A DNA stretch of 64,000 nt from an uncultured Candidatus Rokubacteria bacterium (GTDB lineage Bacteria; Methylomirabilota; Methylomirabilia; Rokubacteriales; CSP1-6), in NCBI GenBank assembly GCA_963734175.1, contig CAVTGC010000010.1, forward strand, positions 252,976 to 316,975, given 5' to 3'. The position numbers and the translations under genes are program-made. Below are positions 12,014 to 62,945 of the stretch, piece by piece (within the stretch, counting starts at the first letter, position 1; each line of letters begins with the position of its first letter). The notes beneath the pieces were generated by a model, which saw only the letters and a list, made by a program, of their open reading frames with translations, was not told where the DNA came from and ran no database searches.

Positions 12014-12362
12014 GTCGGGACTCGAGCTCGGCGTATCTGTCATTGAACAGCGTGGCGAGGAGCCGTACCTAACTTCAATCATGAACATGGACGCCGAGAA
12101 CGACGAGGGACCGATCGCTCAGCTCTACCTGCGCGGGTTGATCTTCGCTTCGCCATTGTTGTGGAAAACGTCGTCACGCGTGGTGACCTGAAGCCCGGTC
12201 TCCGAGTCCAACTCTGCGTGCGCACCCAAGTCGCTGTTGCGGCGGGAGCTCGTGGGCACCGAGGTAGTTGCGCAGAGAATCGTTCAGCCCTCTCTGCCAA
12301 CATGAGTGAGACAGTGACCCCCTGGGAGTTTAGAGTCGAGGGCGAGGCAGGATCGGAGAGCG

Positions 12363-33806: not shown

Positions 33807-34440
33807 TCATCGTGCAGAAGCGTCCGGACGCGCTCCTGGTACCAGGGGGATCGAGTGTTCCTGACCACGCGCGTGCGGATGTGCAGTTTGCGGCCCAAAC
33901 GGCGCTTGCCAGGCATGTATGCGTACCGGGAACTCGTCGAGGCGGGCGGCCTTGCTTCCTTTGGGCGAACTACGCGGCCATGCACAGGCGTGCCGCCTAC
34001 TATGTGGACGCCGGCGTGTAGCTCGTGAACATGGCATCGACCTTCGCAATGACGAGTGCCCGCGCGAGAGCCCGAAACTGCTCAACCCGCCCCTCCAAGA
34101 AGCGGCGCTCGAAGATGACATTCCGCCCCTCGACCCACCCGGCGTCGCGAGACCCCTCGACGAAGCGTCCCTGGCCGGCGTGGCTCCAGGCACACCGTCG
34201 AGATGGCAGATTGGGGCCGGCTTCTTTGCTTGCGCATGTTGCACCGCAGCTTCGAGCGGCGCTGCGAGGTCGCCAGCCAGGGAGGTCAGCAGGATGCGGC
34301 GGCGATTCACTACTCGATCACCTGATCCGCCCGTGCTAGCAGCGAGGGCGGGATCGTCAGGCCGAGCGCCGTGGCGGTCTTTTGAGGTTGTTGACGAGTT
34401 CGAACGTCGTTGGTCCCTTGACTGGTAGATCGCCGGGTTT
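33807..34440 (-). pseudogene. Remnant of a PF04392 substrate-binding-protein tandem junction (3' end of one copy plus the Tat-signal 5' end of the next)
   Basis: 34322-34440 is a degraded copy of the …TIPPSLLARADQVIE* 3' end seen in the array at 47417-51355. It is followed directly by MNRRRILLTSLAG…. The rest of the gene is unrecognisable. Confidence 0.4.
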
Positions 34441-36769: not shown

Positions 36770-37276
36770 GCCAATTCAGCGTGCAACCCTTCGGCCAACG
36801 GCTGCTTCATGCTCAGGCCTGGGGCGTTCAGTCGTTTTACGCGGGCCACGATCTGCTAGAGGTGATGGCATGGAGCTTCATGGCTTTGCGAGGACCGGTC
36901 GCTGCTCGATAGGGCGTTCCGAGTCTGCCGAAGCAACGTCTCCTAGAAGTCGTCGAATCTGACGCGGAGTCAAACGCGTACGCGCGGAGCCTATCGAGGA
37001 GAGCTGTGAAAAATCGAAAGCTTTCTCTCGACAGCGATCCGGCTACTATGAGCACCTAGAGAAATGGCCGATGAGCGCCAATTCCTTCAGACCGGCAAGA
37101 ACGTCGTCGCACAATCGCAGATCAGGGGCGCAAGGTGGTGGAGGTTTCCTAGCGCAGCCACACTACGTCATCGTCACCGAGGCCGAGGACAAGGCCCGAA
37201 GCAAGTAAACCCCTAAGCTCTCTCACTTGCTTCTCAGGCTGTCCTCAAGCGGCGGTGCTCAAGGTCACCTCTAGCT

Positions 37277-38444
37277 TGTCCAGACTCGAAATGGTGTTGA
37301 CACTTCCGCGGTCCCAGAGTGGTGGTGAATGAGCTCATTGTGTGGCCACGCCCCAAACGAGCGCGGCCGGGGTACGACCGCGGACGCGATAGCCTTGGTG
37401 AGGCCGGTCGTGGTTGTAGTAGCGCATGAAGCCGTCGAGGGCTCGCTGCAGCGTCGCGCGACGCGTGAAATAGCGGCGACGGAAGACGACGCGCCAGAGT
37501 TCCTGGAGAATCGTGCCCTGCAGGCGTTCGACGAAGCCGTTGGTCCAGGCATGACGCGGTTTCGTGCGCGTATGGCGGAGGCGGAGCTCGCGGCAGGCCC
37601 CATCAAAGGCGCCCTTGAATTCCGGGCCACCATCGGTGAGCACGCGCCGCACCGGCCAGCCCGCGCGCTGGAAGTGCGGCACCACGACCTCGCGCAGGAA
37701 GCGGGCGGCGGCGGCCGCGTCGTGGGCGGGCAGCAGGCCGGCCAGCCCGTAAGAGGTCGCCGCGTCGCACGCGGTGATCTGCCACACCTTGCCCACGCCT
37801 TTGAGGTTGCCGATGTAGAAGGTGTCCAGACACACCAGCTGGCCCGGCTCCGTGGCCTCGACGTGCCGCGTGCGGCCGTGACGGGCCCGCCAGAGCTTCT
37901 CCCGGGTGCGGTCCGTGAGCAGCCCCGCCGTCCGGGCGGCCTGCTGCTCGAGCACCGTCAGGCGCGCTCGGCGCGTGGCCAAACCGACTCGGCGGAGCAG
38001 CCGCTGCACGGTGCTGGGCGCCAGGCGGATCTGCCAGGTGCGCGCCAGGTAGGCCGCCAGGCGGCGACACCCCCAGGTCGCGGCGCTGATCGCAATCCCC
38101 AGCACCAGCCGTTCCACCTCCGGCGGGGTCGCCACCGGCCGCCCCGCGCCGGCGCGCTGCCGCCGGGGATGAACCCCCTCGACGCCATAGCGTTCCAGCC
38201 GTTGGCGCCAGCGGTAAAACAGGGTCCGGGAGATGCCCAGCTCGCGGCAGACGGCGCTGACGTTGCCGAGCACCTGCGCCCGCTCGATGACGCGCAGGCG
38301 CATTCCGTGTACGCTCTCGTCGAGGGTCATCGGTCCGTCCTCCCACAGTGGTTCCCTTGGCGGGGTAAGCACTCTGGGAAAGATAGAGCCGATGGCCTTC
38401 TTGTTCGTTCACGGCAAGTGTCAACACTATTTCGAGTCCGGACA
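37277..38444 (-). mobile_element. IS481-family insertion sequence, copy A, 1168 bp
   Basis: Terminal inverted repeats TGTCCaGACTCGAAATgGTGTTGACAC… Flanked by the 8-bp direct repeat CTCTAGCT (37269-37276 and 38445-38452). Confidence 0.9.
37335..38372 (-). CDS. IS481-family transposase (HTH plus rve/DDE integrase core), 345 aa
   Basis: …LFYRWRQRLERYGVEGVHPRRQRAG…QLVCLDTFYIGNLKGVGKVWQITACDAATS…VLTDGGPEFKG…HTRTKPRHAWTNGFVERLQGTI…YNHDRPHQGY…. Confidence 0.9.
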   Translation of the reverse strand: MLTPPREPLWEDGPMTLDESVHGMRLRVIERAQVLGNVSAVCRELGISRTLFYRWRQRLERYGVEGVHPRRQRAGAGRPVATPPEVERLVLGIAISAATWGCRRLAAYLARTWQIRLAPSTVQRLLRRVGLATRRARLTVLEQQAARTAGLLTDRTREKLWRARHGRTRHVEATEPGQLVCLDTFYIGNLKGVGKVWQITACDAATSYGLAGLLPAHDAAAAARFLREVVVPHFQRAGWPVRRVLTDGGPEFKGAFDGACRELRLRHTRTKPRHAWTNGFVERLQGTILQELWRVVFRRRYFTRRATLQRALDGFMRYYNHDRPHQGYRVRGRTPAALVWGVATQ

Positions 38445-38534
38445 CTCTAGCTCGCATGATGCCCAGCTTTGCTGGTCCGAAGTGAGCGCCAGCCGGACCC
38501 AGCCGGATCATCATCATGGATGAGCAGGCGCGCA

Positions 38535-39231: not shown

Positions 39232-39736
39232 GCGCCGATTCCTCCAGAGGCAACGCAGAGTAGCAAAAACGGCCGCGAGCGTAGGATCGTCTGCCCCCCT
39301 CCGGACGCCACACCGCTCTTCGCCGCCGCCGGCTCGACGCGCTGACGACCCCGGCTCCCCGACCTGGCGATCAAACCACTTCTTCGATCCGATCAGCCGC
39401 GACATCCGGTTCGAGCAGCCTGTTGAACGGAAGCGGCCAGGGCGGGAGGTGCGTCGGCGGCGTCAGCCTGAGAGGCTCGCGACTCGCCTTTCTGCAGTAA
39501 TGACGATGCTGGTGCCATGTCGCGCGATGCTGCCCGGATGCTGCGAGTATGCCCACGTCTCTGGCCCAGCAGTACCATGGCATCGCAGCCGCCATCTTAC
39601 GCGGTCAGCTATCCGGTGCGAGGTGGCGGTTCACTCTGACTCGTGAAACGCGATCCATGCGCCCTCTCTGCCAACATGAGTGAGACAGTGACCCCCTGGG
39701 AGTTTAGAGTCGAGGGCGAGGCAGGATCGGAGAGCG

Positions 39737-40135
39737 ATGAGCGCATTGGAGCAGGCCCTCGGTGGGCCGGCGATCGAGGTGGTGGCGAAGGCGACACGGC
39801 GGCGGTTCACGTTGGAGTACAAGCGGAAGGTGGTCCGAGAGGCCGACGCCTGTAAGACACCGGGCGCGATCGGGGCGCTGCTGCGGCGGGAGGGACTGTA
39901 CTCCTCGCACCTGACGACGTGGCGGGCGGCGCGGGAGCGGGGCGAGTTGGTCGGGGCGCCGAAGCAACGCGGGCCGGCGCGGCGGGTCGTCGATCCGCGG
40001 GACAAGAAACTGGCCGAGCAAGCGCGGGAGATCAGCCGGTGGCAGAAGCGTGCCGAGCGAGCTGAGGCGCTGGTGGCCCTGCAAAAACAAGTGGCGGCGT
40101 TGCTGGGAACGCCGTTGGTCGACGAGACCTCGTGA
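39737..40135 (+). CDS. IS3-family transposase OrfA
   Basis: Identical to 12363..12761. Confidence 0.9.
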   Translation: MSALEQALGGPAIEVVAKATRRRFTLEYKRKVVREADACKTPGAIGALLRREGLYSSHLTTWRAARERGELVGAPKQRGPARRVVDPRDKKLAEQAREISRWQKRAERAEALVALQKQVAALLGTPLVDETS

Positions 40136-44248: not shown

Positions 44249-44825
44249 CCTGGAGCCAATCCTCGCGGGTGTCTAGTGTGTGGGCTGCGCGCCTTCTAAA
44301 CGTACGATCTACCGATCTTGGTCATATTGCAATCACCATAGTGGTCGATTCCTCCGGGCCGACGGGCCCATAAGCCGTTGCTGATAGTCAAAGATCGGAG
44401 AGCGTCTCCGATAAGATCTCCGACACCAATACCTGAGCTCTGCCATGTTCCCCAGCTCCCTGCTAATCTCCGGCGCGTCTCCATGGTCCGCGGTAGGAGA
44501 GGCTTCACCTGTGGCCATGCCCCCAAAACCGAAGACGCGATGAAGCGAACTAGAGCTGTAGCAGACCTCCGGGAGCGGATATGGCTGCGTGCCCATGTCA
44601 TGTCGCGCTCGGTCTCAGGCGATCCCTGCGTCGTATCGCGCTCAGACCGTGGCGGGCCGCTGGATGGTCACCATATCGCCCAGGACGTCGTCAGTGAATC
44701 GATCGCCGACCTGGATCTCCATTTGGCACCATCGTGTTCGTCAGGGTTTCCACGTCCTGCGCCACCGGGGCTTTTGGCTCGCCGTAAACCGGACCCGATT
44801 TCCTTGGACATCTCACTGGCTAGTG

Positions 44826-45993
44826 TGTCCGGACTCGAAATAGTGTTGACACTTGCCGTGAACGAACAAGAAGGCCATCGGCTCTATCTTTCCCAGAGTG
44901 CTTACCCCGCCAAGGGAACCACTGTGGGAGGACGGACCGATGACCCTCGACGAGAGCGTACACGGAATGCGCCTGCGCGTCATCGAGCGGGCGCAGGTGC
45001 TCGGCAACGTCAGCGCCGTCTGCCGCGAGCTGGGCATCTCCCGGACCCTGTTTTACCGCTGGCGCCAACGGCTGGAACGCTATGGCGTCGAGGGGGTTCA
45101 TCCCCGGCGGCAGCGCGCCGGCGCGGGGCGGCCGGTGGCGACCCCGCCGGAGGTGGAACGGCTGGTGCTGGGGATTGCGATCAGCGCCGCGACCTGGGGG
45201 TGTCGCCGCCTGGCGGCCTACCTGGCGCGCACCTGGCAGATCCGCCTGGCGCCCAGCACCGTGCAGCGGCTGCTCCGCCGAGTCGGTTTGGCCACGCGCC
45301 GAGCGCGCCTGACGGTGCTCGAGCAGCAGGCCGCCCGGACGGCGGGGCTGCTCACGGACCGCACCCGGGAGAAGCTCTGGCGGGCCCGTCACGGCCGCAC
45401 GCGGCACGTCGAGGCCACGGAGCCGGGCCAGCTGGTGTGTCTGGACACCTTCTACATCGGCAACCTCAAAGGCGTGGGCAAGGTGTGGCAGATCACCGCG
45501 TGCGACGCGGCGACCTCTTACGGGCTGGCCGGCCTGCTGCCCGCCCACGACGCGGCCGCCGCCGCCCGCTTCCTGCGCGAGGTCGTGGTGCCGCACTTCC
45601 AGCGCGCGGGCTGGCCGGTGCGGCGCGTGCTCACCGATGGTGGCCCGGAATTCAAGGGCGCCTTTGATGGGGCCTGCCGCGAGCTCCGCCTCCGCCATAC
45701 GCGCACGAAACCGCGTCATGCCTGGACCAACGGCTTCGTCGAACGCCTGCAGGGCACGATTCTCCAGGAACTCTGGCGCGTCGTCTTCCGTCGCCGCTAT
45801 TTCACTCGTCGCGCGACGCTGCAGCGAGCCCTCGACGGCTTCATGCGCTACTACAACCACGACCGGCCTCACCAAGGCTATCGCGTCCGCGGTCGTACCC
45901 CGGCCGCGCTCGTCTGGGGCGTGGCCACACAATGAGCTCATTCACCACCACTCTGGGACCGCGGAAGTGTCAACACCATTTCGAGTCTGGACA
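44826..45993 (+). mobile_element. IS481-family insertion sequence, copy B, 1168 bp
   Basis: Flanked by the 8-bp direct repeat GGCTAGTG (44818-44825 and 45994-46001). Confidence 0.9.
44898..45935 (+). CDS. IS481-family transposase
   Basis: Identical to the copy A protein. Confidence 0.9.
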   Translation: MLTPPREPLWEDGPMTLDESVHGMRLRVIERAQVLGNVSAVCRELGISRTLFYRWRQRLERYGVEGVHPRRQRAGAGRPVATPPEVERLVLGIAISAATWGCRRLAAYLARTWQIRLAPSTVQRLLRRVGLATRRARLTVLEQQAARTAGLLTDRTREKLWRARHGRTRHVEATEPGQLVCLDTFYIGNLKGVGKVWQITACDAATSYGLAGLLPAHDAAAAARFLREVVVPHFQRAGWPVRRVLTDGGPEFKGAFDGACRELRLRHTRTKPRHAWTNGFVERLQGTILQELWRVVFRRRYFTRRATLQRALDGFMRYYNHDRPHQGYRVRGRTPAALVWGVATQ

Positions 45994-46031
45994 GGCTAGT
46001 GGTGGGATGAGCAGCAACCAAGGAGGTTGGA

Positions 46032-47275: not shown

Positions 47276-47416
47276 CCATGATGCTGGGGCTCACCCTGAC
47301 AATCGAGGGCCACAGATGTCAGAGGCGAGAACGCTGAAGCTCACAATTGCGGCTTGCTCAGTGTCCAGGAAACCGGGTGCGGTACAGCCGCGGCGCTGAG
47401 GCTCAGCCCTTCCGCT

Positions 47417-48385
47417 TCACTCGATCACCTGATCGGCCCGCAGCAGTAGGGACTGCGGGATCGTCAGGCCGAGCGCTTTGGCCGTCTTGAGGTTGACGAC
47501 GAGTTCGAACTTGGTGGCTTGCTCGATGGGAAGATCCGCCGGCTTGGCGCCTCTGAGGATCTTGTCGACATAAATTGCCGCTCTTCGCAGTTGCTCGAAG
47601 ACGTTCGCGCTGTAAGACATGAGCCCACCCGCCTCTACAACGGATCGATCGGTATACATCGCCGGCCAGCGCTTCCGCGCGGCAAACTCGACGATGCGCC
47701 GTTGATATGCAGTAGTGATGGCCGTGGGAAAGAACACTGCACCGGCGTGTTGGGAGATCGCGGCCTCGAGAGCCTTCTCCAGTTCCGCTGATTCTCGCAC
47801 GCGGACGGACTCGACCTGGAGGCTCAGGTTTTGGGCGGCCGATTCCACCGCCTGGCACCTCCTGACCGTCGCGGCATTCGCTGGATCCCAGGCGCAGGCG
47901 ACACGCTTAAGACCTGGGACCATCTCCTTGACCAGCTCAAGGGCCTTGCCATCGGCCTCCGGGCCGACAAGTGAGAGGCCTGTGGTGTTGCCGCCCGGCT
48001 GCGCAAGGCTTTTGACCAAGCCAGTCCCGACGGGATCAGCGCTGACGCTGACGATCGGAATGTTCAAGGCTTGCTGGGCCGCGCGAGCCGCCGGCGTTGT
48101 GAACGTGACGATCACATCGACGCGAGCGCGGATAAGATCCGCGACTAGGCCAGGGAGGCGGTCGCCACGTCCTTCGGCGCTGCGATTCTCGACGACGACG
48201 TTCTTGCCTTCGACGTAACCGAGATCGCTCAGACCCTGGCGGAGCGCGTCGAGTTCACCCCCGCCCGCCATGCCCCATTGAAGGAAGCCTATCCGCCAGA
48301 GCTTCCCCACCTGTTGCCCCCCAGCGGCGAACGGCGTAGCAACCGCACCAGCCAGTGAGGTCAGCAGGAAGCGGCGGCGGTCCAC
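47417..48385 (-). CDS. PF04392-family ('ABC transporter substrate-binding protein') periplasmic protein with a Tat-type signal, paralog 4 of 4
   Basis: MDRRRFLLTSLAGAVATPFAA… ; …DVIVTFTTPAARAAQQALNIPIVSVSADPVGTGLVKSLAQPGGNTTGL… ; …TIPQSLLLRADQVIE. Confidence 0.8.
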   Translation of the reverse strand: MDRRRFLLTSLAGAVATPFAAGGQQVGKLWRIGFLQWGMAGGGELDALRQGLSDLGYVEGKNVVVENRSAEGRGDRLPGLVADLIRARVDVIVTFTTPAARAAQQALNIPIVSVSADPVGTGLVKSLAQPGGNTTGLSLVGPEADGKALELVKEMVPGLKRVACAWDPANAATVRRCQAVESAAQNLSLQVESVRVRESAELEKALEAAISQHAGAVFFPTAITTAYQRRIVEFAARKRWPAMYTDRSVVEAGGLMSYSANVFEQLRRAAIYVDKILRGAKPADLPIEQATKFELVVNLKTAKALGLTIPQSLLLRADQVIE

Positions 48386-49380
48386 TACTCGATGACCTGA
48401 TCCGCCCGCGCCAGCAGCGATGGCGGGATCGTTAGGCCGAGGGCCTTCGCGGTCCTCAGGTTGATCACGAACTCGTACTTTGTGGGCTGTTCGATGGGAA
48501 TGTCTCCGGGCTTCCCGCCCCGGAGGATTTTGTCCACGAAGGTCGCTGCACGATGGTGAAGATTGGGGAGACTAGCGTTGTATGACATCAGACCACCAGA
48601 ATCCACATAGTGCCGCCAGGGGTAGATGGCGGGAAGGCGATGCTTCAGTGCCAATACCACGACCTGCCCACGATTCGGTTCGAGGACAACCGGATCCGGT
48701 CGGACAACAAGGGCACCGATGCGGGCTCCGTCGATCGCCCTGAACGCCTGTGCAATCCCCTCGGGCTTGGTGACCTCGAAGCTCTGCATCTCCAGACCGA
48801 GCGCACGGGCGGCGGCGTCAATCGCCTTCGCTCTCGATCCGGCGGGGTCAGGGACCGCCATCGGATTCACGAGGGTCGCCACGCGTACGAGGCCCGGAAC
48901 CGTCTGCTTGAGTAGCTCGAGGTGTTTCCCCTCTATCTCCGCCTGAGTCAGCCAGGCTATACCGGTGATGTTCCCTCTTGGCCGTGCCAAGTCCCGGACG
49001 AAGCCCTGCCCAATCGGGTCGGCGACGGCCGACATGACGATCGGAATCCTGGTGGTCGCCCGGCGGGCCGCTTGGGCTGCCAAGCTGCCGCGGACGACGA
49101 TGATGTCGACCTTCAGCCGCACCAGCTCGGTCGCTATGTCCGGCAACCGTTCGGATTTACCTTCTGCGTACCGATACTCGATGATGACATTCGAGCCCGG
49201 CGTCCAGCCCAGCTCGCGGAGGCCCCGCTCGAACGGCTCGCGAGCCAGTGTGGGCGGTTCGCCCAAGCTGCCACCGCTCAAATGTCCAATCCGGGCGGCC
49301 TTCGCCTGCTGCGCCTCCGCCCCGAGCGGCCCGGCCAGGGCACCAGCCACCGAGGTCAGCAGGAAGCGGCGCCGGTCCAC
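48385..49380 (-). CDS. PF04392-family substrate-binding protein, paralog 3 (GTG start)
   Basis: VDRRRFLLTSVAGALAGPLGAEAQQ…IVVRGSLAAQAARRATTRIPIVMSAVADPIGQGFVRDLARPRGNITG… The start overlaps the stop of paralog 2 (TAGTG). Confidence 0.8.
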   Translation of the reverse strand: MDRRRFLLTSVAGALAGPLGAEAQQAKAARIGHLSGGSLGEPPTLAREPFERGLRELGWTPGSNVIIEYRYAEGKSERLPDIATELVRLKVDIIVVRGSLAAQAARRATTRIPIVMSAVADPIGQGFVRDLARPRGNITGIAWLTQAEIEGKHLELLKQTVPGLVRVATLVNPMAVPDPAGSRAKAIDAAARALGLEMQSFEVTKPEGIAQAFRAIDGARIGALVVRPDPVVLEPNRGQVVVLALKHRLPAIYPWRHYVDSGGLMSYNASLPNLHHRAATFVDKILRGGKPGDIPIEQPTKYEFVINLRTAKALGLTIPPSLLARADQVIE

Positions 49381-50366
49381 TACTCGATCACCTGATCCGC
49401 CCGCGCGAGCAGCGACGGGGGGATCGTGAGGCCGAGGGTCTTGGCAGTCTTGAGGTTGATCACCAGTTCGAACTTCGTCGGTTGCTCGATTGGCGTGTCG
49501 GCAGGCTTGGCGCCCTTGAGGATTCGGTCCACGTAAGTGGCGGCCCGGCGCGACATCTGCGTGAAATCCGGACCGTAGGCCATGAGACAGCCTTCCACGA
49601 CGAACAGTGTCGTCTCGCACGTCATCGGCAGGCGGTGGGCGGCGGCCAGCTCGATAAGCTTCGCCCGGTAGGTTGCGAGGAACGGTGAGGCTATCTGGAA
49701 CACCGCATGCGCCCCATTCTTTTTGGCGGACACTAACGCCGGGGTGAAATCCTCGGGCCGCTGAACCTCGAGCCGCTGGGTCTGCAAGCCGAGCCCCTGC
49801 GCCGCCGCCTCGACCGCGCGGACCCCGGTGTCCCCGCCGCCGCCGCGGTCCCAGAGGAGGGCGACTCGCCGCATGCCGGGCACGACCTCCCTGAGCAGTT
49901 CGAGGCGTTTTGTCCCCAACTCGGAGTCCTGAAAGGCTAGGCCTGTGATGTTCCCCCCTGGACGCGCCAAACTCTTGACGAAACCGAAGGCCACCGGCTC
50001 ATGCACGATCGCCATGACGATCGGAACCGTTGCGCTCGCCTGCTGTGAGGCGCGGATCGCCTGGGGACCCCACGCCACGAGCACGTCGACGGGGAGCGCA
50101 ACGAGCTCGGACGCGATCTTCGGAAATTCGTCCAGCCGTCCCTCGCCCCATCGCGTCTCGATCACGATCGTCTGCCCCTCGATCCACCCCAGTTCTCGAA
50201 GTCCGTCGCGGAGCGTCTTGACCAGCAACTGGAACTGATCACCCGCGCTGGAGCCCGGGGCGAAGACCCCGACGCGGGGCGTCTTCGCTGCTTGCTGCGC
50301 CTCGGCGACAGGCGGCGCAACGAGGGCACCGGCCAGCGAGGTCAGCAGGAACCGGCGACGGTCCAC
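49380..50366 (-). CDS. PF04392-family substrate-binding protein, paralog 2
   Basis: MDRRRFLLTSLAGALVAPPVAEAQQ… ; …TIPPSLLARADQVIE. Confidence 0.8.
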   Translation of the reverse strand: MDRRRFLLTSLAGALVAPPVAEAQQAAKTPRVGVFAPGSSAGDQFQLLVKTLRDGLRELGWIEGQTIVIETRWGEGRLDEFPKIASELVALPVDVLVAWGPQAIRASQQASATVPIVMAIVHEPVAFGFVKSLARPGGNITGLAFQDSELGTKRLELLREVVPGMRRVALLWDRGGGGDTGVRAVEAAAQGLGLQTQRLEVQRPEDFTPALVSAKKNGAHAVFQIASPFLATYRAKLIELAAAHRLPMTCETTLFVVEGCLMAYGPDFTQMSRRAATYVDRILKGAKPADTPIEQPTKFELVINLKTAKTLGLTIPPSLLARADQVIE

Positions 50367-51355
50367 TACTCGACTACCTGATCCGCCCGCGCCAGGAGTG
50401 ATGGCGGGATTGTGAGGCCGAGGGCTTTGGCGGTCTTCACGTTTACGATTAACTCGAACTTCGCGGGTCCCTCCATTGGGAGATCGCCTGGCGCGGCACC
50501 TTTGAGGATGCGGTCGACGTAGCCCGCGGCGCGCCGATACATATCGGCACCATCGGGCCCATGAGCGATCAACCCGCCCGCGCGCGCGAAGGTCGGCGAC
50601 CCGAAGGAGGCCAGGCGATGCTGAAGGGCGAGACTGGCAATCTGAGCCCCGAGTGGATTCAGGAGCGACGTGTTCGGCACAATGACGGCCTGCGCTCCCT
50701 GCTGTGTCAAGGCGGCGAATGCCTGGGCGAGGTCGGCCGGGCGCCGCACGGGCACGCGACGGACTGCTAAGCCCAACGTTCGCGCGGCATCATCCTCCTT
50801 TTGGCGCCACACTTCGGCAACCTCGGGCCGCTCGATGCCAGGGACGTCCAGCCAGCCCACGTCTGAAGCTCCGGGGACGACCTGCTTCACCAGCTCCAGC
50901 CATTTCACGGTCGATGCGAACTCTTCGAGTACGAGCCCCGTGATGTTCCCGCCCGGACGGGAGAGGCTGGCGACGACACCGCTAGCCACCGGGTCACCCA
51001 CCACTGCGATGACGACGGGAATCGTGGCTGTCGCCTGCTTGGCTGCGCGGGAGCCGGCCGAGCCGTGCGTCACGATGGCATCGACGTTAAGGCCGACCAG
51101 CTCCTTTGCCAAAGTTGGCAAGCGGTCGAGTTTGCGCTCGGCCCAGCGGTATTCAATGACGAGGTTCTTGCCTTCCTCGTATCCCAGAGCCTGGAGGCCT
51201 TGGCGCAGTGCAGCCGTTTGGCGGGTAAGGTCTCCGGGAGAGGTTTGGCCGAGAAATCCGACCCGATAGACTCGCTCTGCCGTTTGTGCCTCAGCGGCGA
51301 GCGGTGCAGTCAGCGCTCCCGCCAGCGAGATTACGAAGAAGCGACGGCGGTCCAT
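50366..51355 (-). CDS. PF04392-family substrate-binding protein, paralog 1
   Basis: MDRRRFFVISLAGALTAPLAAEAQT… (internal Met of ORF 50366..51454) ; …TIPPSLLARADQVVE. Confidence 0.8.
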   Translation of the reverse strand: MDRRRFFVISLAGALTAPLAAEAQTAERVYRVGFLGQTSPGDLTRQTAALRQGLQALGYEEGKNLVIEYRWAERKLDRLPTLAKELVGLNVDAIVTHGSAGSRAAKQATATIPVVIAVVGDPVASGVVASLSRPGGNITGLVLEEFASTVKWLELVKQVVPGASDVGWLDVPGIERPEVAEVWRQKEDDAARTLGLAVRRVPVRRPADLAQAFAALTQQGAQAVIVPNTSLLNPLGAQIASLALQHRLASFGSPTFARAGGLIAHGPDGADMYRRAAGYVDRILKGAAPGDLPMEGPAKFELIVNVKTAKALGLTIPPSLLARADQVVE

Positions 51356-51450: not shown

Positions 51451-51831
51451 TCACGTTCGATGACGCTCAATGAGCTGTTCCACTGCCGCCACGAAGTCTT
51501 TTATCTTGATCGGCTTGCTCTGGAAGCCGTCGAATCCTGCGTCCAACACTCTCTGCCGATCCTCGGACATCACCGACGCGGTCATGGCCATAACGGGAAT
51601 CCCCTGAGTGGCGACCTCGGCTCGCAGCCGTCCGAGCGCCTGGATCCCGTCGATGCCGGGTAGTCGAATGTCCATCAGGATCAGGCTCGGGCGGTGCTCT
51701 TGGGCGAGTCCGACTCCCTCTTCTCCCGTCTCGGCTTCTATGATCTCGTAGCCCTTGAACGCCAGCAGATCCCGGACGAGCTTTCGACTCTTGCTATCGT
51801 CCTCCACGACGAGGACTAGCTCATTCGCCAT
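51451..51831 (-). CDS. Single-domain response regulator (REC)
   Basis: MANELVLVVEDDSKSRKLVRDLLAFKGYEIIEAETGEEGVGLAQEHRPSLILMDIRLPGIDGIQALGRLRAEVATQGIPVMAMTASVMSEDRQRVLDAGFDGFQSKPIKIKDF…. Confidence 0.85.
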   Translation of the reverse strand: MANELVLVVEDDSKSRKLVRDLLAFKGYEIIEAETGEEGVGLAQEHRPSLILMDIRLPGIDGIQALGRLRAEVATQGIPVMAMTASVMSEDRQRVLDAGFDGFQSKPIKIKDFVAAVEQLIERHRT

Positions 51832-54325
51832 CGCGCACCGGAATCGTGAACGTAAACGTCGAACCGACACCAACCTGGCTCTGGACCCGGATCCGGCCCC
51901 CGTGCAGCTCGATGAACTTCCGGGCCAGGGCAAGTCCCAGACCGGTCCCCTCGGCCTTCTTCTCCGCCGCCCCCACCTGTCGAAACTCCTCGAACACCGC
52001 CCCCAGGTCCGAGGGCGCGATGCCCACGCCAGTGTCGGCCACGGACACCTCCACCAGCGCCTCGTTCACCGCCGCACGGACGTCGATCCGCCCACCTTCC
52101 GGCGTGAACTTGATTGCGTTGGACAACAGGTTCAAGAGCACCTGCTTGATCTTCCGCTCGTCCCCTCGAATCTCGCCGAGAAGCGGGTCGATCGAGTGCT
52201 CCAGCGTGATCCCCCGGCGCAGTGCCCGTTCCCGCACGAGGACCAGAGCATTGTCAATCGCCTGGGGTAGATGGAAGTCCATCAGCTCCAGTTCCATGCG
52301 GCCAGCTTCGATCTTCGACAGATCGAGAATGTCGTTGATCAGTGACAGCAGGTGCGTGCCGGAGGCGTTGATGTCCTGAACGTACTCGGCCTGCTTGTGG
52401 TTCAGTTCGCCGAACATCCGCTCACCCAGCACTTCCGAGAACCCTATGACTGCGTTGAGGGGCGTCCGTAGTTCATGCGACATGTTGGCCAGGAATTCAG
52501 ATTTGTGCTGGCTGGCCACTTCGAGCTGGCGGCTCTTGTCGGCCAGCTCGTTGAACAGTCGGACGTTCTCGATGGCGATCACCGCTTGGTCGGCGAATGT
52601 CTTCAGCAGCGCGATCTGCTGATCCACGAACGGCCGAACAGCGAACCGCATCGCGAAGATCGTTCCGAGCGCAATGCCTTCGCGGACTAGCGGCACAGCA
52701 AGCACCGTGCGATGCCCGAAGCGGCGTTGCAAGTCCCGACCAAGCGAGAAGTCGGCTTCTGACGCGACGGCCAAGTCGGGAATATGGAGCGTCGTACCAT
52801 CGATCACTGAGCGGGCCGCGACGGAGTCTCGCACGAGCGGCACACGGAAATCGGCTGCCAAACTTCCCCAGAACGTACCGACACCCGCGACAGGACGGAG
52901 CACATCACCCTCGCGGATGAGCAGAAGGACGTCGTTAGCTGTGCAGAGCCGCGCGGACCTCGCGACCAGGGAGTCGAAGACGGGCTGCACGTCAGTTGGC
53001 GAGCTCGAAATCACGCCCAGGATCTCACTGGTCGCCGTCTGTCGCTCCAGCGCCTCAGTGACCTGCCCGTGAGCCTGCGTGAGCGCGCGATTCTTCTCCT
53101 GCAATTCCTTGAACAGCCGCACGTTCTCGATGGCGATCACCGCCTGGTCGGCGAAGGTCTTCAACAGCTCGATCTCGTTGTCGGCGAATGATCCAGGCTC
53201 GGCACGCGCCACCCCGATGACGCCGATGGGAACACCCTCGCGCAACATTGGTACGAAGAGGCCGCTTCGCCAGCCGACCGCGCGAGACAGGGCCGGATGC
53301 TGATACTCCGGATCGACCCCGACATTGGGTATGTGAACAACCGCACGCTCGAGGATCACCCGCCCTGCCCCCAAGGTTCGGGTTGGACGCACCGGGAATG
53401 CGCGACGCATCTCCTCCAGAGCTTCGGAGGAGAAGTTGTGCTGGGCAACATGATGGAGCAGCTCGCCGTCGAACCGATACAGCACGCTGAAGAGACCATC
53501 GCACAACGTCGCGGCGCTCCTGGCGATCGTGTCGAAGACCGGCTGCACGTCGGTCGGCGAGCTGGCAATCACGCGAAGAATCTCGCTTGTAGCGGTCTGC
53601 TGGTCCAGCGACTCCATCACCTGCGCGTGGGCCTGGGTCAGGGCCTGGTTCTTCTCTTGGAGCTCGGTAAACAGGCGGACGTTCTCGATGGCGATGACGG
53701 CCTGGTCGGCGAAGGTGTCCAGGAGCGCGATCTGCTTGTCGCTGAATGGCCGGACGTGGCGTCGATGGAATGCCAGGGCCCCAACGAGTCGACCTTCCTT
53801 GAGCATCGGGACAGCCAGAGAAGTTCGCATGCCTTCCCGGCGGTACACCTCAGGCGGTGAGAAGGACGGGTCGGCAAGAATGTCAGCGACATGACTGATC
53901 CGCGGCTCTAGTCCAACGCGCCGCAGCGGCGTCTCCGGTCCCGGCAGGATGACCGCCTCTTGAAGGTAGGCGCGGAATTCGTCCGACAATTCGACGACCG
54001 CTGCCATGCGGAAGCCTTGTCCATCGAAGGTGAAGATGCCGCCATTGTTAGCCTCACAGAGGCGAAGGGCATTTGCGAGGATGGTGTCAAACACCGGCTG
54101 GACGTCCGCCGGCGACTGACTGATGACCCGCAGAATCTCGCTGGTCGCGGTCTGACGCTCCAGCGCCTCCGCCTCGCGCTTCACCGCCTCCGCCAGATGC
54201 TTCTCCAGATCGCGGATTCTGGCGCCTTGTTTCGTGGAGGCATTACTGCTGCGAGAGGGCTTCGCGTCGACTTTGGCCTGCGTAGGCTTTGCGCGAGGAC
54301 GCATCGGCCGCTTCTCGCCTCTCAA
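51821..54325 (-). CDS. Multi-GAF sensor histidine kinase, 834 aa
   Basis: Four repeats of the GAF-type block (QTATSEILRVI.SSP.DVQPVFD… / …VPM…G…G…RF.D.QIALL.TFADQAVIAIENVRLF.EL), then HisKA (…EFLANMSHELRTPLNAVIGFSEVL…) and HATPase_c (…DTGVGIAPSDLGAVFEEFRQ…GTGLGLALARKFIELHGGRIRV…). Confidence 0.85.
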   Translation of the reverse strand: MRGEKRPMRPRAKPTQAKVDAKPSRSSNASTKQGARIRDLEKHLAEAVKREAEALERQTATSEILRVISQSPADVQPVFDTILANALRLCEANNGGIFTFDGQGFRMAAVVELSDEFRAYLQEAVILPGPETPLRRVGLEPRISHVADILADPSFSPPEVYRREGMRTSLAVPMLKEGRLVGALAFHRRHVRPFSDKQIALLDTFADQAVIAIENVRLFTELQEKNQALTQAHAQVMESLDQQTATSEILRVIASSPTDVQPVFDTIARSAATLCDGLFSVLYRFDGELLHHVAQHNFSSEALEEMRRAFPVRPTRTLGAGRVILERAVVHIPNVGVDPEYQHPALSRAVGWRSGLFVPMLREGVPIGVIGVARAEPGSFADNEIELLKTFADQAVIAIENVRLFKELQEKNRALTQAHGQVTEALERQTATSEILGVISSSPTDVQPVFDSLVARSARLCTANDVLLLIREGDVLRPVAGVGTFWGSLAADFRVPLVRDSVAARSVIDGTTLHIPDLAVASEADFSLGRDLQRRFGHRTVLAVPLVREGIALGTIFAMRFAVRPFVDQQIALLKTFADQAVIAIENVRLFNELADKSRQLEVASQHKSEFLANMSHELRTPLNAVIGFSEVLGERMFGELNHKQAEYVQDINASGTHLLSLINDILDLSKIEAGRMELELMDFHLPQAIDNALVLVRERALRRGITLEHSIDPLLGEIRGDERKIKQVLLNLLSNAIKFTPEGGRIDVRAAVNEALVEVSVADTGVGIAPSDLGAVFEEFRQVGAAEKKAEGTGLGLALARKFIELHGGRIRVQSQVGVGSTFTFTIPVRDGE

Positions 54326-57879: not shown

Positions 57880-58430
57880 TGAAGGACGGGGGTTGGCGGA
57901 CGCAGGCGTAGCCGGAGCGCCGCCTCGATCTCGGCGGAGGCCTTGTTGCGCTGAAACAGCTCGCGGATCTGGTCCCGGGTCGCTCGAGGACTGCGAATCC
58001 CCAACACTCGGCTCCCGGCTGCTACCGACGACCGCGGCCGAGTCCCGTCAACGCGTAATGAAACCGCGCACTTGAATTCTGCAAGTTCGATCAGGTCCCG
58101 TTGGGGCCACCACCGCCTTTGGTAACAACACGCTGGTGACCAGTCGCTCCAGCGTGCACCGCAGCTTCACCTCCACCTCACCATCCAGCGGTGTGAACAC
58201 GATGCGTCCGTCGATCAGTTTGCGGAGCATCTGTCGCGCCTGCTGCGCGTGACGGCGCAGCATCGTTCGCCACTCGTGCAGGTAGCCGACCAGTCGTGCT
58301 CCAGGCGCCGCAGGTCTGTGGCCGCGACTGCTGGACGTTCAAGCTGGGCCAGCTCGGCCACGACCTGAGCACGCCCGCTGACGCCTGTCTGCTCGATGGG
58401 TTTGCGGACGGAAATGGCGGCAATCATCAT
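57880..58430 (-). pseudogene. Disrupted minus-strand ORF. Pieces are 58215..58430, 58048..58263 and …TRDQIRELFQRNKASAEIEAALRLRLRPP… Identity unknown.
   Basis: Three consecutive minus-strand reading frames with plausible protein-like sequence but no recognisable motif. Confidence 0.15.
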
Positions 58431-59476
58431 TCCGGGACCTCGGCTTGGGTTTGTGAGACGTGCAGGCGGAGATATTTGATGGCCAAGTTTCGCGCATCTG
58501 CCACCGGGAGCGTCGGTTCATCCACCGGCTCACCATGTGCAAGATGGTGGCGGTGCCTAGCGACCCCTCCAAAGGTCTCCAAATCATCATCCGCTGTGTC
58601 CGGCGCTAGCTGAAACGCGATCGCCGCGAACCTATCGCGTAGCCCGTACTTGTCTTTCATGACGTCGCGGATCCGATTGAGATACTGCTGTCTCGCCGCG
58701 CTTTGGGTTTCACCTGCGATCCTCCTGAAGAATCTCGCGTCATATTCCGCAAACTGCTTGTTGACGAAGATCTCCAGTGCAGTCCATGCGGCTAAAAACG
58801 CGCGTAGCTTGTCATCGTCGGTATTCATGGAAGCTTGGATTAGCGACTGAACTCGTGATAGCGACTGGTCCGCGGACAAAGCTCGATATAGCGGAAGTAA
58901 GCCTGCCAGTTGATCGGCGGTGGGAGGTCGAGAGACGAACAGGGTAGCGGCCCCACCGAGCAATTTGAACGAATACACCGGCTTACCGTCATCCCGAAAA
59001 TACACGACCTTGTCTGTGATCCTCGTAATCGTCTGCAAGTCGAACCGGGCGCATAGAGAGAGATTCACGGCAGTGAACAAGCGGTCGAACTTGTTGCGTA
59101 TCGTCTCTGCATCTCCCATGTCGAACCCGACGACGAACTCGACATCCTCGTGTGCTCGGGACGCGTCGAAGTTCTCCATTTCCCCTTCGCCAGTGAGCAC
59201 GACATAGGGTCCCGGTTGTTCTCGTCTGCGCGCTGCGCGAATCTTTTCGACTGTTTCGTTCAGGCGCCCCTGAGTCTGTTCGCCTCGTAAGGCGCCCCTG
59301 AGCATCAACTGTGCAAGCGCGAGGTGGCGGTCAGCATGCAGTGCCCACTCGTCGGCGTCAGCCGTCAAGACGCATCTGAGTCCCTGAGTGTCGTCACGCA
59401 GCAGGACGACGGAGGGTGTGTCCGCGGGCAACGAAAGGCCCTTTGCCACATGAATGGCGGTGTACTGGTATTTCAC
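58427..59476 (-). CDS. Hypothetical protein, 349 aa. No recognisable domain. Encoded in a locally AT-richer segment.
   Basis: Clean ORF with a GTG start (VKYQYTAIHVAKGLSLPADTPSVVLLRDDTQ…). Its C-terminus contains …FGGVARHRHHLAHGEP…. Confidence 0.55.
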   Translation of the reverse strand: MKYQYTAIHVAKGLSLPADTPSVVLLRDDTQGLRCVLTADADEWALHADRHLALAQLMLRGALRGEQTQGRLNETVEKIRAARRREQPGPYVVLTGEGEMENFDASRAHEDVEFVVGFDMGDAETIRNKFDRLFTAVNLSLCARFDLQTITRITDKVVYFRDDGKPVYSFKLLGGAATLFVSRPPTADQLAGLLPLYRALSADQSLSRVQSLIQASMNTDDDKLRAFLAAWTALEIFVNKQFAEYDARFFRRIAGETQSAARQQYLNRIRDVMKDKYGLRDRFAAIAFQLAPDTADDDLETFGGVARHRHHLAHGEPVDEPTLPVADARNLAIKYLRLHVSQTQAEVPE

Positions 59477-59811
59477 TTCGGCCGAGTCTCGGAGGCGCGG
59501 TGGAGCGCCAAGAATGGCTTGCTCTTTGCGCGCTGCCAGGCGGTATGAACCCGCGCCAGCTCGCGGCAGAAGAACGCGACCTGGTCGGCACCGGGCCGCA
59601 ACAGGCCAAGACGCTGGGCGAGTTCGAAGAACCCGTGCCCAGGGATGTTGTCCTGCCTGTGCACCACGATGGCGGTCAGCAGGGGGCCACCCTGCTGGTG
59701 CTCGTGCGAGATGGCGGTGAGAATATGTCGGATTGCGTCGCGGTCGGCCGGGCTGTCAATGCCCAGGCCGGCCAGTGCTGCGATGGCGCTGTATGTGGTC
59801 GTTCCCTAGAG

Positions 59812-60979
59812 TGTCCAGACTCGAAATGGTGTTGACACTTCCGCGGTCCCAGAGTGGTGGTGAATGAGCTCATTGTGTGGCCACGCCCCAGACGAGCGCG
59901 GCCGGGGTACGACCGCGGACGCGATAGCCTTGGTGAGGCCGGTCGTGGTTGTAGTAGCGCATGAAGCCGTCGAGGGCTCGCTGCAGCGCCGCGCGACGAG
60001 TGAAATAGCGGCGACGGAAGACGACGCGCCAGAGTTCCTGGAGAATCGTGCCCTGCAGGCGTTCGACGAAGCCGTTGGTCCAGGCATGACGCGGTTTCGT
60101 GCGCGTATGGCGGAGGCGGAGCTCGCGGCAGGCCCCATCAAAGGCGCCCTTGAATTCCGGGCCACCATCGGTGAGCACGCGCCGCACCGGCCAGCCCGCG
60201 CGCTGGAAGTGCGGCACCACGACCTCGCGCAGGAAGCGGGCGGCGGCGGCCGCGTCGTGGGCGGGCAGCAGGCCGGCCAGCCCGTAAGAGGTCGCCGCGT
60301 CGCACGCGGTGATCTGCCACACCTTGCCCACGCCTTTGAGGTTGCCGATGTAGAAGGTGTCCAGACACACCAGCTGGCCCGGCTCCGTGGCCTCGACGTG
60401 CCGCGTGCGGCCGTGACGGGCCCGCCAGAGCTTCTCCCGGGTGCGGTCCGTGAGCAGCCCCGCCGTCCGGGCGGCCTGCTGCTCGAGCACCGTCAGGCGC
60501 GCTCGGCGCGTGGCCAAACCGACTCGGCGGAGCAGCCGCTGCACGGTGCTGGGCGCCAGGCGGATCTGCCAGGTGCGCGCCAGGTAGGCCGCCAGGCGGC
60601 GACACCCCCAGGTCGCGGCGCTGATCGCAATCCCCAGCACCAGCCGTTCCACCTCCGGCGGGGTCGCCACCGGCCGCCCCGCGCCGGCGCGCTGCCGCCG
60701 GGGATGAACCCCCTCGACGCCATAGCGTTCCAGCCGGTGGCGCCAGCGGTAAAACAGGGTCCGGGAGATGCCCAGCTCGCGGCAGACGGCGCTGACGTTG
60801 CCGAGCACCTGCGCCCGCTCGATGACGCGCAGGCGCATTCCGTGTACGCTCTCGTCGAGGGTCATCGGTCCGTCCTCCCACAGTGGTTCCCTTGGCGGGG
60901 TAAGCACTCTGGGAAAGATAGAGCCGATGGCCTTCTTGTTCGTTCACGGCAAGTGTCAACACTATTTCGAGTCCGGACA
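59812..60979 (-). mobile_element. IS481-family insertion sequence, copy C, 1168 bp
   Basis: Flanked by the 8-bp direct repeat CCCTAGAG (59804-59811 and 60980-60987). Confidence 0.9.
59870..60907 (-). CDS. IS481-family transposase
   Basis: Differs from copies A and B by 2 amino acids (WRHRLERY ; RRAALQ). Confidence 0.9.
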   Translation of the reverse strand: MLTPPREPLWEDGPMTLDESVHGMRLRVIERAQVLGNVSAVCRELGISRTLFYRWRHRLERYGVEGVHPRRQRAGAGRPVATPPEVERLVLGIAISAATWGCRRLAAYLARTWQIRLAPSTVQRLLRRVGLATRRARLTVLEQQAARTAGLLTDRTREKLWRARHGRTRHVEATEPGQLVCLDTFYIGNLKGVGKVWQITACDAATSYGLAGLLPAHDAAAAARFLREVVVPHFQRAGWPVRRVLTDGGPEFKGAFDGACRELRLRHTRTKPRHAWTNGFVERLQGTILQELWRVVFRRRYFTRRAALQRALDGFMRYYNHDRPHQGYRVRGRTPAALVWGVATQ

Positions 60980-61080
60980 CCCTAGAGCCTGCGAAATACG
61001 TTTCAGTTCTTCGTATATCGGGCCGTGTAGCTGCCCAGTCGGCACCTCAGGCGTCGGCATGGAGTGGCTCCTGTTGGACG

Positions 61081-62202
61081 TCAAGGGGCACGCCGGCCAG
61101 ACCGCAGCCGACGCCCGCGACCATCCACGACGCGCAGCCGCGGTGAGGCTCCATTTGAGGGTAGCGTCTTAGGAGCGGCGGCGTGCATCTCGATTACTTC
61201 TCTGGCAAGCATAGGCGACCAGTTGAGGTCTTCTGCGAGCCGCTTGTAGTCGATCGGGTTTCCATAGAGCACTTCAGCGATCTTACGGACTGCGCGCGGC
61301 CGTTCGGCCGGAAGCGGATGCGGCTCAGCGGTGCGCCAACGGTGCAGGCCAATCTGCTCCATCAAGTAACGGTACTGGCGCTCATGGACAATTCCCAGGT
61401 CTCTTGCCCGCCGGATCAGCATCTGAATCGAAACCCCCCAGCGTGGCTTTAGGGTGGCCAGACTCGTCAGAGTGACGGGCGTCGAGATCTCCTCGCGCAT
61501 TGCCGTCTCGGGGCAAAGAAACTCCGCGGCAAACGTGTCAGCCTGCTTTTCTAGATCCGCGATACTGCCTCGTAGGGGCTGGTGCATTACGAGATGCCCA
61601 ATCTCGTGGGCGACGGTATATCGCTGCCGCTCGCCGGGTGCGCCGGCCAGCAGCACGATCACCGGGCGCTGCGCCTCAGGTCCAGCCCAGGCGGAAAAGG
61701 CGTCGCAGGCTGACAACGTAAGAGACACCGCGAGGACCAGCACCCCGGCACGCTCCACCACGTGAAGAAGGTGTGGGATCGGCGTGTTGGGGGCCAGCCC
61801 AAGCATGGCCCGCGTCACGGCTGCGGCGAGTTTTGGCTCCTCGGAGAGACGTGGTAGCTGAAGCGGAAGCCCGCGCACCCTTTGTTCGAGTTTTTGGACC
61901 GCCTCGAGGGTGAGGTGAGCGTAGACGCGTGCTTGGTCGCGTGGCTGGGCTCGAAGGTCGGCCCGAGCGCGGAAGAGGAGCGTCCCCAGCGGGAATTCAC
62001 CCGATGTTGGTGGTTCCTCGAAAAACGAAATGGGCAGCCCGGTGGTTACACTGAACGCGGTGATGAGCTGGAGGGACGGCGTGCGGAGGCCTCGCTCGAC
62101 TTGCGTCACTGCCGGCTGCGTGACGCCCGCCCGGTCTGCCAACTCGCTTTGCGTTAGCCCCCGAAGCTCTCGCGCCTGGCGAATCCGTTCTGGATGGAAC
62201 AC
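61081..62202 (-). CDS. XRE-family HTH fused to an ImmA/IrrE-family (COG2856) zinc metallopeptidase, 373 aa
   Basis: N-terminal HTH …IRQARELRGLTQSELADRAGVTQPAVTQVERGLRTPSLQLI… ; HEXXH motif …RYTVAHEIGHLVMH… ; …EKQADTFAAEFLCP…. The GTG start overlaps the upstream gene's stop by 1 nt (TAGTG). Confidence 0.8.
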   Translation of the reverse strand: MFHPERIRQARELRGLTQSELADRAGVTQPAVTQVERGLRTPSLQLITAFSVTTGLPISFFEEPPTSGEFPLGTLLFRARADLRAQPRDQARVYAHLTLEAVQKLEQRVRGLPLQLPRLSEEPKLAAAVTRAMLGLAPNTPIPHLLHVVERAGVLVLAVSLTLSACDAFSAWAGPEAQRPVIVLLAGAPGERQRYTVAHEIGHLVMHQPLRGSIADLEKQADTFAAEFLCPETAMREEISTPVTLTSLATLKPRWGVSIQMLIRRARDLGIVHERQYRYLMEQIGLHRWRTAEPHPLPAERPRAVRKIAEVLYGNPIDYKRLAEDLNWSPMLAREVIEMHAAAPKTLPSNGASPRLRVVDGRGRRLRSGRRAP

Positions 62203-62945
62203 TACTGCTTGACCTGTCCTTGCTCTTCCTCGCCGTCACTCTCGATATCAAGGTCTGGCGCTGTGCTCTCGGGGCCGACACCCTCGGTTGGCTCGGCAAG
62301 CAAAGCATCGGGACCAGTGCTGCCGGTGGCGGCAGGGGCTGGGGGTGCAGCTTCGATGCCCAGATCCGGCTCTGTGATTTCGTCACTGGCGGACGACACG
62401 CCGTGCGCCGGATGAGGAATCTCAATTGGGCCCCAATGCAGCGTAACGGTGCTACCTGCTGAGGCCGGGCAGGCGAGGTGGAGAGCCACGAACTTGTATG
62501 CCGCGGTCACCTCCCAGAGCGCCAGCAGGTTGATGATGCCATCCGCCGCGATTGGGGATTCCACGTCGGGAAACTGAAATGTCAACTGTTGAGCGTAGAA
62601 GTCCTGGAGGATCTTTGAGCCACCCGGCGGTCGGACGCCAGCGGGCGAGTACTTTTGAAATCGGAGATGGTAGCGCCCGGCCAGTAGTGAGATGCCGTTG
62701 TTTGCCAGCGGCTCACGCTCCACGTCGTCCTCAGCTGCGTGGAGGCCATCCGCCTCGAGGCGCTGGATTGCCAAGTAGCGCACGATATTGTGCGCCAAGG
62801 CATTGTTCACTGACTCGTGCCGGTCATCGAACCAGCCTCGGACGTCCTGACAACCCGATTCGAATGCGGCGTAGACGGCTGGCCAGAGGTGCGACAGTTC
62901 GGCGCGCACATCCTCGAACTCAGGGAGCGGGCCTGGCGTTGGCAT
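62202..62945 (-). CDS. Hypothetical 247-aa protein translationally coupled upstream of the HTH-ImmA/IrrE gene
   Basis: MPTPGPLPEFEDVRAELSHLWPAVYAAFESGCQDVRGWFDDRHESVNNALAHNIVRYLAIQRLEADGLHAAEDDVEREPLANNGISLLAGRYHLRFQKY… Acidic Gly/Pro-rich C-terminus. No recognised domain. Confidence 0.55.
   Translation of the reverse strand: MPTPGPLPEFEDVRAELSHLWPAVYAAFESGCQDVRGWFDDRHESVNNALAHNIVRYLAIQRLEADGLHAAEDDVEREPLANNGISLLAGRYHLRFQKYSPAGVRPPGGSKILQDFYAQQLTFQFPDVESPIAADGIINLLALWEVTAAYKFVALHLACPASAGSTVTLHWGPIEIPHPAHGVSSASDEITEPDLGIEAAPPAPAATGSTGPDALLAEPTEGVGPESTAPDLDIESDGEEEQGQVKQ

Follow-up and report, generated by a model that had tools for sequence, protein, structure and literature searches.

A two-domain protein with a predicted HEPN fold from an IS-disrupted locus of a Rokubacteria genome, and the undescribed family to which it belongs

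HEPN RNases are recurrent executioners of prokaryotic immunity, as in Cas13, Csm6, PrrC, ApeA, HepS, and DARNA, and for each such RNase the question is what the attached sensor recognises. The closest described parallel to the protein reported here is ApeA, a single-gene anti-phage tRNA anticodon nuclease that is switched on when 5′-phosphorylated deoxydinucleotides bind in the pocket separating its N-terminal domain from the HEPN domain (10.64898/2026.01.26.701840). We analysed a 349-residue protein encoded in a 64-kb stretch (hereafter "the window", meaning the whole stretch of DNA under analysis) of contig CAVTGC010000010.1, from an uncultured Candidatus Rokubacteria bacterium. The protein belongs to a large, undescribed, and sequence-distinct family, with a predicted HEPN domain and an undescribed N-terminal domain. 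Our best reading, made by analogy, is that it works like ApeA while lying outside the ApeA family.

The gene and its predicted domains

The gene occupies positions 58427 to 59476 of the minus strand, including the stop codon at 58427-58429. It starts with GTG and forms a single uninterrupted open reading frame (ORF) of 1,050 nt, whose limits were taken from the ORF listing, the homologue alignment, and the profile search. Because homologues can be aligned with the ORF from its first residue (M-x-Y-x-Y...) up to residue ~346, we take the GTG start and the long reading frame to be those of a true gene, which is intact and, judged by its homologues, complete. It follows that the gene call in the source annotation (P0001), which has 257 residues and lacks the first 92 conserved ones, is N-terminally truncated. 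A first-pass annotation of the window, made from the letters of the DNA, had already described a clean, long ORF here, without giving its strand, which is minus. It had also called the product an orphan, a term that holds for curated libraries only. There, neither the protein nor its family profiles gave a significant match to Pfam, NCBIfam, PADLOC, PHROGs, or PDB sequences. A search of 5.8 billion proteins, on the other hand, recovered 20 close, unannotated homologues at 29-49% identity, mostly over their full length. When a profile built from these 20 was run on 1.84 billion cluster representatives (50%-identity clusters), it retrieved 1,212 representatives at E≤1e-3, of which 495 also passed E≤1e-30. 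These representatives come from at least eight phyla, and almost all have ~350 residues. Among the 150 matches listed, nearly every one is 340-370 residues long and matches the profile end to end, and the two-domain architecture is therefore fixed in the family.

The AlphaFold2 model, which was made with the 20-sequence alignment, has two domains and a mean predicted local distance difference test score (pLDDT) of 87.3. An N-terminal alpha+beta domain (residues 1 to ~170-175; 58952-59476, minus strand) is followed by a low-confidence linker (residues 171-186) and an all-helical C-terminal region (residues 187 to ~346-349; 58430-58918, minus strand), whose core (residues ~220-346) is the predicted HEPN fold. 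The C-terminal domain is modelled as a four-helix up-and-down bundle, the arrangement that defines the HEPN superfamily. Its list of structural relatives (scores in brackets) includes the HEPN protein AF0298 (2hsb, 10.4), the HepT toxin (7ae2, 10.1), YutE (1ylm, 9.9), Csm6 (8jbc, 9.8), SO_3166 (5yep, 9.8), AbiA (8oz7, 9.4), and the HEPN domain of sacsin (3o10, 8.9), with HepS, AbiV, and LsoA lower in the list.

The motif expected of a catalytic HEPN domain is R309-H-H-L-A-H314 (58535-58552, minus strand), an Rx4H motif for which the family consensus is R-D-x-L-x-H-G. Counted in a 135-member family alignment, which underlies all the conservation figures given here, both R309 and H314 are kept in 134/135 members. 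Position 310 is D in 91%, N in 7%, and H in 1.5%, the window protein being among the last. In the AlphaFold2 model the motif spans the last turn of the helix formed by residues 295-313, at its C-terminal end, and the loop after it, and the end of a helix and the next loop is its canonical position in HEPN domains (PMC3710099). The residue after the conserved arginine is typically N, D, or H (PMC3710099), and the window protein has such a polar residue directly after R309. A conserved acidic residue further upstream, typically within Ex3[KR], completes the HEPN site (PMC3710099). The predicted counterpart is E235 (58772-58774, minus strand), located in the "AWxALEIFVNK" helix and present in 135/135 members, as is F242. 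With E235 at 100% and K240 at 92%, the spacing is Ex4K, as compared with the typical Ex3[KR]. The first-pass annotation had pointed to the string ARHRHHLAHGE, which is present at residues 306-316, as weakly reminiscent of an R-x(4-6)-H HEPN-type motif. That suspicion proved well founded, given that the motif is nearly invariant and correctly placed in the predicted fold.

Some members of the alignment also gave weak profile matches. HEPN_Apea was matched below threshold by 7/135 (best 5.5e-4) and HEPN_MAE_28990 by 1; in PADLOC, Csx1 was weakly matched by 6 and CARF_HEPN models by up to 4. These matches are not independent, since the members are homologous, and a spurious match to Mating_N recurs in the same way. 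We therefore count them as corroboration only. Taken as modelled, the C-terminal domain is a HEPN domain of the catalytic type, on the strength of predicted structure and motif and not of sequence homology to a curated family. The fold itself is predicted with high confidence, in an intact ORF whose motif is conserved and rightly placed.

The N-terminal domain has near-invariant residues at G13, D49, and R83, and a DGKPxYS hairpin at residues 163-169 that is conserved in the majority of members. It has no Pfam match and no confident structural relative, and a profile search with this domain for other architectures returned 3 proteins only. By analogy with other HEPN effectors, we consider it a candidate sensor or regulatory domain.

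Like the window protein, ApeA is one polypeptide in which a C-terminal HEPN domain with an Rx4H motif is preceded by a non-catalytic region without detectable homology, and it occurs in defence islands. HEPN_Apea is also the only curated HEPN family to which members of the new family show recurrent, albeit sub-threshold, matches. In contrast, the window protein matches neither HEPN_Apea nor the PADLOC ApeA model at E≤1, and 0/135 relatives match PADLOC ApeA. ApeA is ~580 residues long, with a helical N-terminal domain and a Mid domain that together span ~300 residues (ApeA_NTD1 in Pfam), whereas the window protein has one alpha+beta domain of ~175 residues, and ApeA forms decamers activated by pdNG dinucleotides. 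Given the missing matches and the different N-terminal region, the protein is therefore not a member of ApeA.

DARNA, PrrC, and HepS would share the sensor-gated logic that we propose for the 349-residue protein. They and other described HEPN systems differ from it in domain order and in their partner domains, namely an ABC ATPase in PrrC, a Pds5-like C-terminal domain behind an N-terminal HEPN domain in DARNA (PD-T7-3), and a CARF domain in Csm6/Csx1. None of the models of PrrC/RloC, DARNA/PD-T7-3, HepS, AbiV, AbiJ, and Csm6/Csx1 gave a significant match. HepT and other minimal HEPN toxins of type VII toxin-antitoxin (TA) systems (7ae2, 5yep, 8xdj), and proteins of the AF0298 type (2hsb), are single-domain proteins of ~130 residues with an adjacent MNT antitoxin, and their sequence identity to the window protein is 10-16%. 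A HepT/MntA type VII system would be expected to have an MNT nucleotidyltransferase adjacent or fused to the toxin, and no MNT gene or fold is present here. Type III TA systems (AbiF-like HEPN with an RNA antitoxin) would have ~30-45 nt tandem direct repeats ahead of the toxin gene. A search with Tandem Repeats Finder (TRF) in the 600 nt before and the 400 nt after 20 homologues and the window gene gave only short low-complexity repeats, and there was no Rfam match.

Distribution, base composition, and neighbourhoods of the family

In species-representative genomes, relatives were found in Chloroflexota, Cyanobacteria, Armatimonadota, Nitrospirota, Actinomycetes, and alpha-, gamma-, and delta-proteobacteria. 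Nearly all of these carriers are metagenome-assembled genomes (MAGs), together with Tahibacter aquaticus DSM 21667, and one full-length member is carried on a conjugative Sinorhizobium megaplasmid. Two relatives depart from the usual architecture. In a Nitrospirae MAG (L021, 1054-2102), a member is present as two adjacent ORFs, one for the N-terminal domain (212 residues) and one for the HEPN part (132 residues). The split may stem from gene decay or from an error in sequencing, or it may be a natural two-part form. Another relative (P0199, 186 residues) consists of the N-terminal domain alone.

The G+C content of the 349-residue ORF is 57.2%, as against 65.5% for the window, and it is the lowest among all 1,050-nt sliding windows of the 64 kb (mean 0.656, sd 0.032). 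The dip is restricted to this ORF. The contrast noticed in the first-pass annotation is thus real, while its figures of 59% and ~67% needed correction. Such a dip is not peculiar to the window. At all 20 of the loci tested (among L008-L028), the family gene is lower in G+C than its flanks, by 8.4 points on average (Wilcoxon p=1.9e-6), and the window gene, at 8.3 points below its flanks, is typical. Low G+C is therefore a trait of the family as a whole. Amino-acid composition adds to it, with G+C at second codon positions (GC2) being 0.42 in the window gene. Low G+C at every locus, combined with the patchy taxonomic spread, fits repeated horizontal acquisition, and the foreign origin that had been suspected from composition alone is now the most likely history of the window gene.

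We compared the neighbouring genes at 23 non-redundant homologous loci all against all with BLAST and found no conserved neighbour family. Between the family gene and whatever lies upstream there are usually 100-300 nt of intergenic DNA, and the family gene looks autonomous. Known defence or TA genes lie within 3 kb at no fewer than 8 of 24 loci (at least 8/24; locus labels in brackets). They are DrmD of DISARM as the directly next gene (L010), a type IIG restriction-modification gene (L022), HerA (L023), GajA of Gabija (L027, in Tahibacter aquaticus DSM 21667), DitA as the next gene (L016), PDC-S06 (L018), an island with HicAB, ParE, and PIN (L002), and, in the window, the RmrA-like gene described below. 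Looking for homologues in defence islands, as had been advised at the outset, thus gave a suggestive answer.

These observations bear on the idea that the protein is a non-catalytic or housekeeping HEPN protein that acts in nucleotide or ligand binding or in RNA processing, apart from any conflict system. Many HEPN domains are indeed non-catalytic, and some of the homologous loci have housekeeping neighbours. Nevertheless, we regard this explanation as very improbable, given that the family shows essentially no variation in its Rx4H motif and acidic residue, a mark of catalytic HEPN families (PMC3710099), and that the gene is rare, patchy, and compositionally foreign in every genome tested, unlike housekeeping genes.

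Proposed function

By analogy with the systems described above, we think it reasonably probable that the protein is a single-chain effector in which a sensor controls a HEPN RNase, acting as a toxin or against phage; its RNase activity, substrate, trigger, oligomeric state, and phenotype are what we infer from that analogy. The first-pass annotation had listed it as a candidate toxin or defence effector, and the predicted HEPN fold, the conserved motif, the base composition, and the defence neighbours speak for that suggestion, again with function as an extrapolation from known systems. A narrower proposal, which we put forward tentatively and hold to be just short of probable, is that the family is an undescribed single-gene anti-phage (abortive infection) system, in which a novel alpha+beta sensor unleashes the fused HEPN RNase.

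In such a mechanism, dimerisation of the HEPN domains of two chains would create a composite RNase site that needs no metal and is made up of E235, R309, the D, N, or H at position 310, and H314. The N-terminal domain would hold this site inactive until it had bound a trigger, which might be a phage protein, a nucleic-acid fragment, or a small molecule, as a cue of infection or stress. Once activated, the enzyme would cut tRNA, mRNA, or rRNA, and the cleavage would stop translation and lead to abortive infection or growth arrest. The family as a whole would move horizontally and tend to settle in defence islands.

Several points weigh against this proposal. First, no curated HEPN family is matched at threshold by sequence, and the HEPN assignment therefore depends on the predicted structure and the motif. 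Second, the window copy departs from the family at two strongly conserved positions beside the catalytic R309, with alanine in place of K306 (K in 93% of members) and histidine in place of D310 (D in 91%). The window enzyme may therefore be attenuated, which may perhaps be tied to the disruption of the gene upstream of it. Third, neither a ligand pocket nor an alternative architecture was found for the N-terminal domain, for which a sensor role is suggested purely by analogy. Fourth, no family member was found in the phage and viral collections searched, which adds no support and is neutral for a role in defence. Finally, about two-thirds of the loci have no recognised defence gene within 3 kb, and several of the neighbourhoods are housekeeping-like; the enrichment near defence genes, counted as at least 8/24 without a background rate, is suggestive.

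The locus in the window and its meaning for the family

In the window, the 349-residue gene is the fourth of five elements that all lie on the minus strand. Along the direction of transcription, they are a gene for a 247-residue protein, an RmrA-like gene, a small gene split by an insertion sequence (IS), the 349-residue gene, and a frameshifted remnant. The RmrA-like gene (61081-62202) encodes a helix-turn-helix (HTH) domain and an M78 (ImmA/IrrE) peptidase domain (HTH_3, 8.5e-14; Peptidase_M78, 6.4e-18; PADLOC RmrA, 8.7e-70). These coordinates and domains bear out the setting sketched in the first-pass annotation, namely a broken minus-strand ORF, an IS481 copy, and an ImmA-type gene. The unannotated 247-residue gene (62202-62945) shares 1 nt of its stop codon with the start of the RmrA-like gene. 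Its product gave no match when searched against Pfam, NCBIfam, PADLOC, PHROGs, and plasmids. This gene is the likeliest partner of the RmrA-like gene and a candidate novel toxin of the RmrT type; Rosmer toxins are variable, and 58% of the systems are toxin-first (PMC10440598).

The 5′ part of the small gene (MPTPEVPTGQLHGPIYEELKRISQA...; 60981-61060) begins ~20 nt past the stop codon of the RmrA-like gene. The TGA of its 3′ part (59473-59804) overlaps the GTG start of the 349-residue gene (GTGA). Between the two parts lies copy C of an IS481-family element (59811-60980, minus strand), with rve and HTH transposase domains and a transposase co-oriented with the 349-residue gene. It is flanked by perfect 6-bp target duplications (TCTAGG, at 59805-59810 and 60981-60986) and shows 100% identity to the window's copy at 44820-45999. 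Its insertion was therefore simple and probably recent. It has destroyed the small gene directly upstream of the 349-residue gene. Removal of the element in silico restores the small gene, save for a +1 frameshift at the junction. Three near-identical IS481 copies (98-100%) are present in the window in all, at 37266-38465, 44805-46004, and 59811-60980. A duplication that contains CTAG (AGCTAGA) flanks the first of them, and the element appears to have been recently active.

The small gene belongs to a family of ~115-123-residue proteins (34 homologues at 57-77% identity), with the consensus ...PIYEELKRVA...TTYSxIAPLAGLDM.NPADRD...PMLTAIVVHRQDNIPGHGFFELA..., and its product has no Pfam match. 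A likeness to MGMT/Atl-type winged helices was noticed by eye only and, without a Pfam match, was set aside. Relatives of the small gene (loci L029-L037) adjoin varied defence-type genes, such as those for a DUF4145-like protein, SIR2_2, and GmrSD_N, the last together with a giant helicase. Another relative adjoins the gene for a 427-residue protein with an RNxxxHG HEPN-like motif, which aligns to the Rx4H region of the 349-residue family (hhalign probability 70%). The small protein may be an accessory or regulator of defence islands. Neither it, nor the 247-residue protein, nor the downstream remnant had a tblastn match at the 23 non-redundant homologous loci.

One could suppose that the 349-residue protein is the toxin of a local TA module, that the ~120-residue upstream protein is its antitoxin, knocked out by IS481, and that K306A and D310H are a compensatory attenuation. 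The overlap between the small-gene stop codon and the GTG start, the conservation of the small-gene family, the toxin-like or defence genes beside its relatives (including those for the 427-residue RNxxxHG protein and the DUF4145-like protein), and the deviation of the window protein at two conserved residues close to the active site would all suit such a module. Even so, we consider it improbable. Tblastn and clustering found a relative of the small protein at 0/23 non-redundant homologous loci, and the small protein also neighbours SIR2_2 and GmrSD_N, which makes it a general resident of defence islands with no dedicated partner. In addition, histidine at position 310 is among the three residues typical for HEPN (PMC3710099).

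Equally improbable, in our view, is that the protein acts downstream of the RmrA-like (Rosmer-type) system, as its effector or toxin, in a four-gene operon that the HTH-M78 protein controls or neutralises. Before the IS insertion, the four minus-strand genes were joined by a 1-nt overlap, a ~20-nt gap, and a 4-nt overlap, and the RmrA-like gene, which is now ~1.6 kb upstream on the same strand, was ~0.4 kb away. Rosmer toxins are diverse in sequence, RmrA has many unrelated toxins as partners, encoded before or after it (PMC10440598), and the RmrA-like protein also resembles CapH/CapP regulators. However, a full RmrA-like neighbour was present at 0/23 other non-redundant loci, two of which have short HTH-only neighbours, and there was no PADLOC RmrT match. 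Moreover, the 247-residue gene that overlaps the RmrA-like start is the more natural partner, and the likelier toxin. We treat the RmrA-like gene as a neighbouring system that might possibly have a part in the function of the 349-residue protein.

Downstream, the start codon of the frameshifted remnant (about 57880-58430, minus strand) overlaps the stop codon of the 349-residue gene (ATGA), as seen in its three-frame translations. The remnant had no match to a Pfam family, a plasmid, or a phage. A likeness by eye to the C-terminal tail of a large serine recombinase had no Pfam, plasmid, or phage support, and we make no such claim. With both flanking genes broken, upstream by IS481 and a frameshift and downstream by a frameshifted ORF, the window gene might be left over from a degraded mobile element and, in this particular genome, be decaying or inactive and without a present function, an explanation that is compatible with the one proposed for the family. 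K306A and D310H point the same way, as does the fact that no sigma-70-like promoter was detected between IS481-C and the gene. We think this rather unlikely, however, as the 1,050-nt ORF is uninterrupted, aligns over its full length, and keeps all the other conserved residues, and histidine is acceptable at position 310 in HEPN. Furthermore, read-through transcription of the gene is possible, since the IS transposase points in the same direction and is not separated from the gene by any terminator-like site. Our best reading of the locus is that of a ~5-kb defence islet, with an RmrA-like (Rosmer-type) pair, that has been broken up by IS481.

Elsewhere in the window, a 136-nt unit is perfectly duplicated in tandem at positions 992-1263 (100% identity). 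What looks like an array of paralogous genes lies at 47341-50578, where there are four tandem copies ~990 nt apart that share 150-290 nt at 61-81% identity; positions 34228-34381 hold a related segment. A 100%-identical 300-nt repeat at 12287-12586 and 39661-39960 overlaps ORFs of 493 and 502 residues, and is probably a different insertion sequence in two copies. Finally, three copies of a 558-nt periodic repeat (75-85% identity) lie inside the gene for a large sensor histidine kinase (51821-54325, minus strand), suggesting that its sensor modules have been triplicated.

The family to which the 349-residue protein belongs is large and phylogenetically broad, and it has no entry in Pfam, NCBIfam, or PADLOC. 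If the proposed function is true, the family would bring a new sensor module, and possibly a new class of trigger, to HEPN-based defence, spread over >1,000 clusters in many phyla. If it is a defence system, it would provide a new sensor-effector pair, as well as a model that is missing from defence-annotation tools. In the Rokubacteria genome itself, the former "orphan" can now be interpreted as part of a small, IS-disrupted defence islet.

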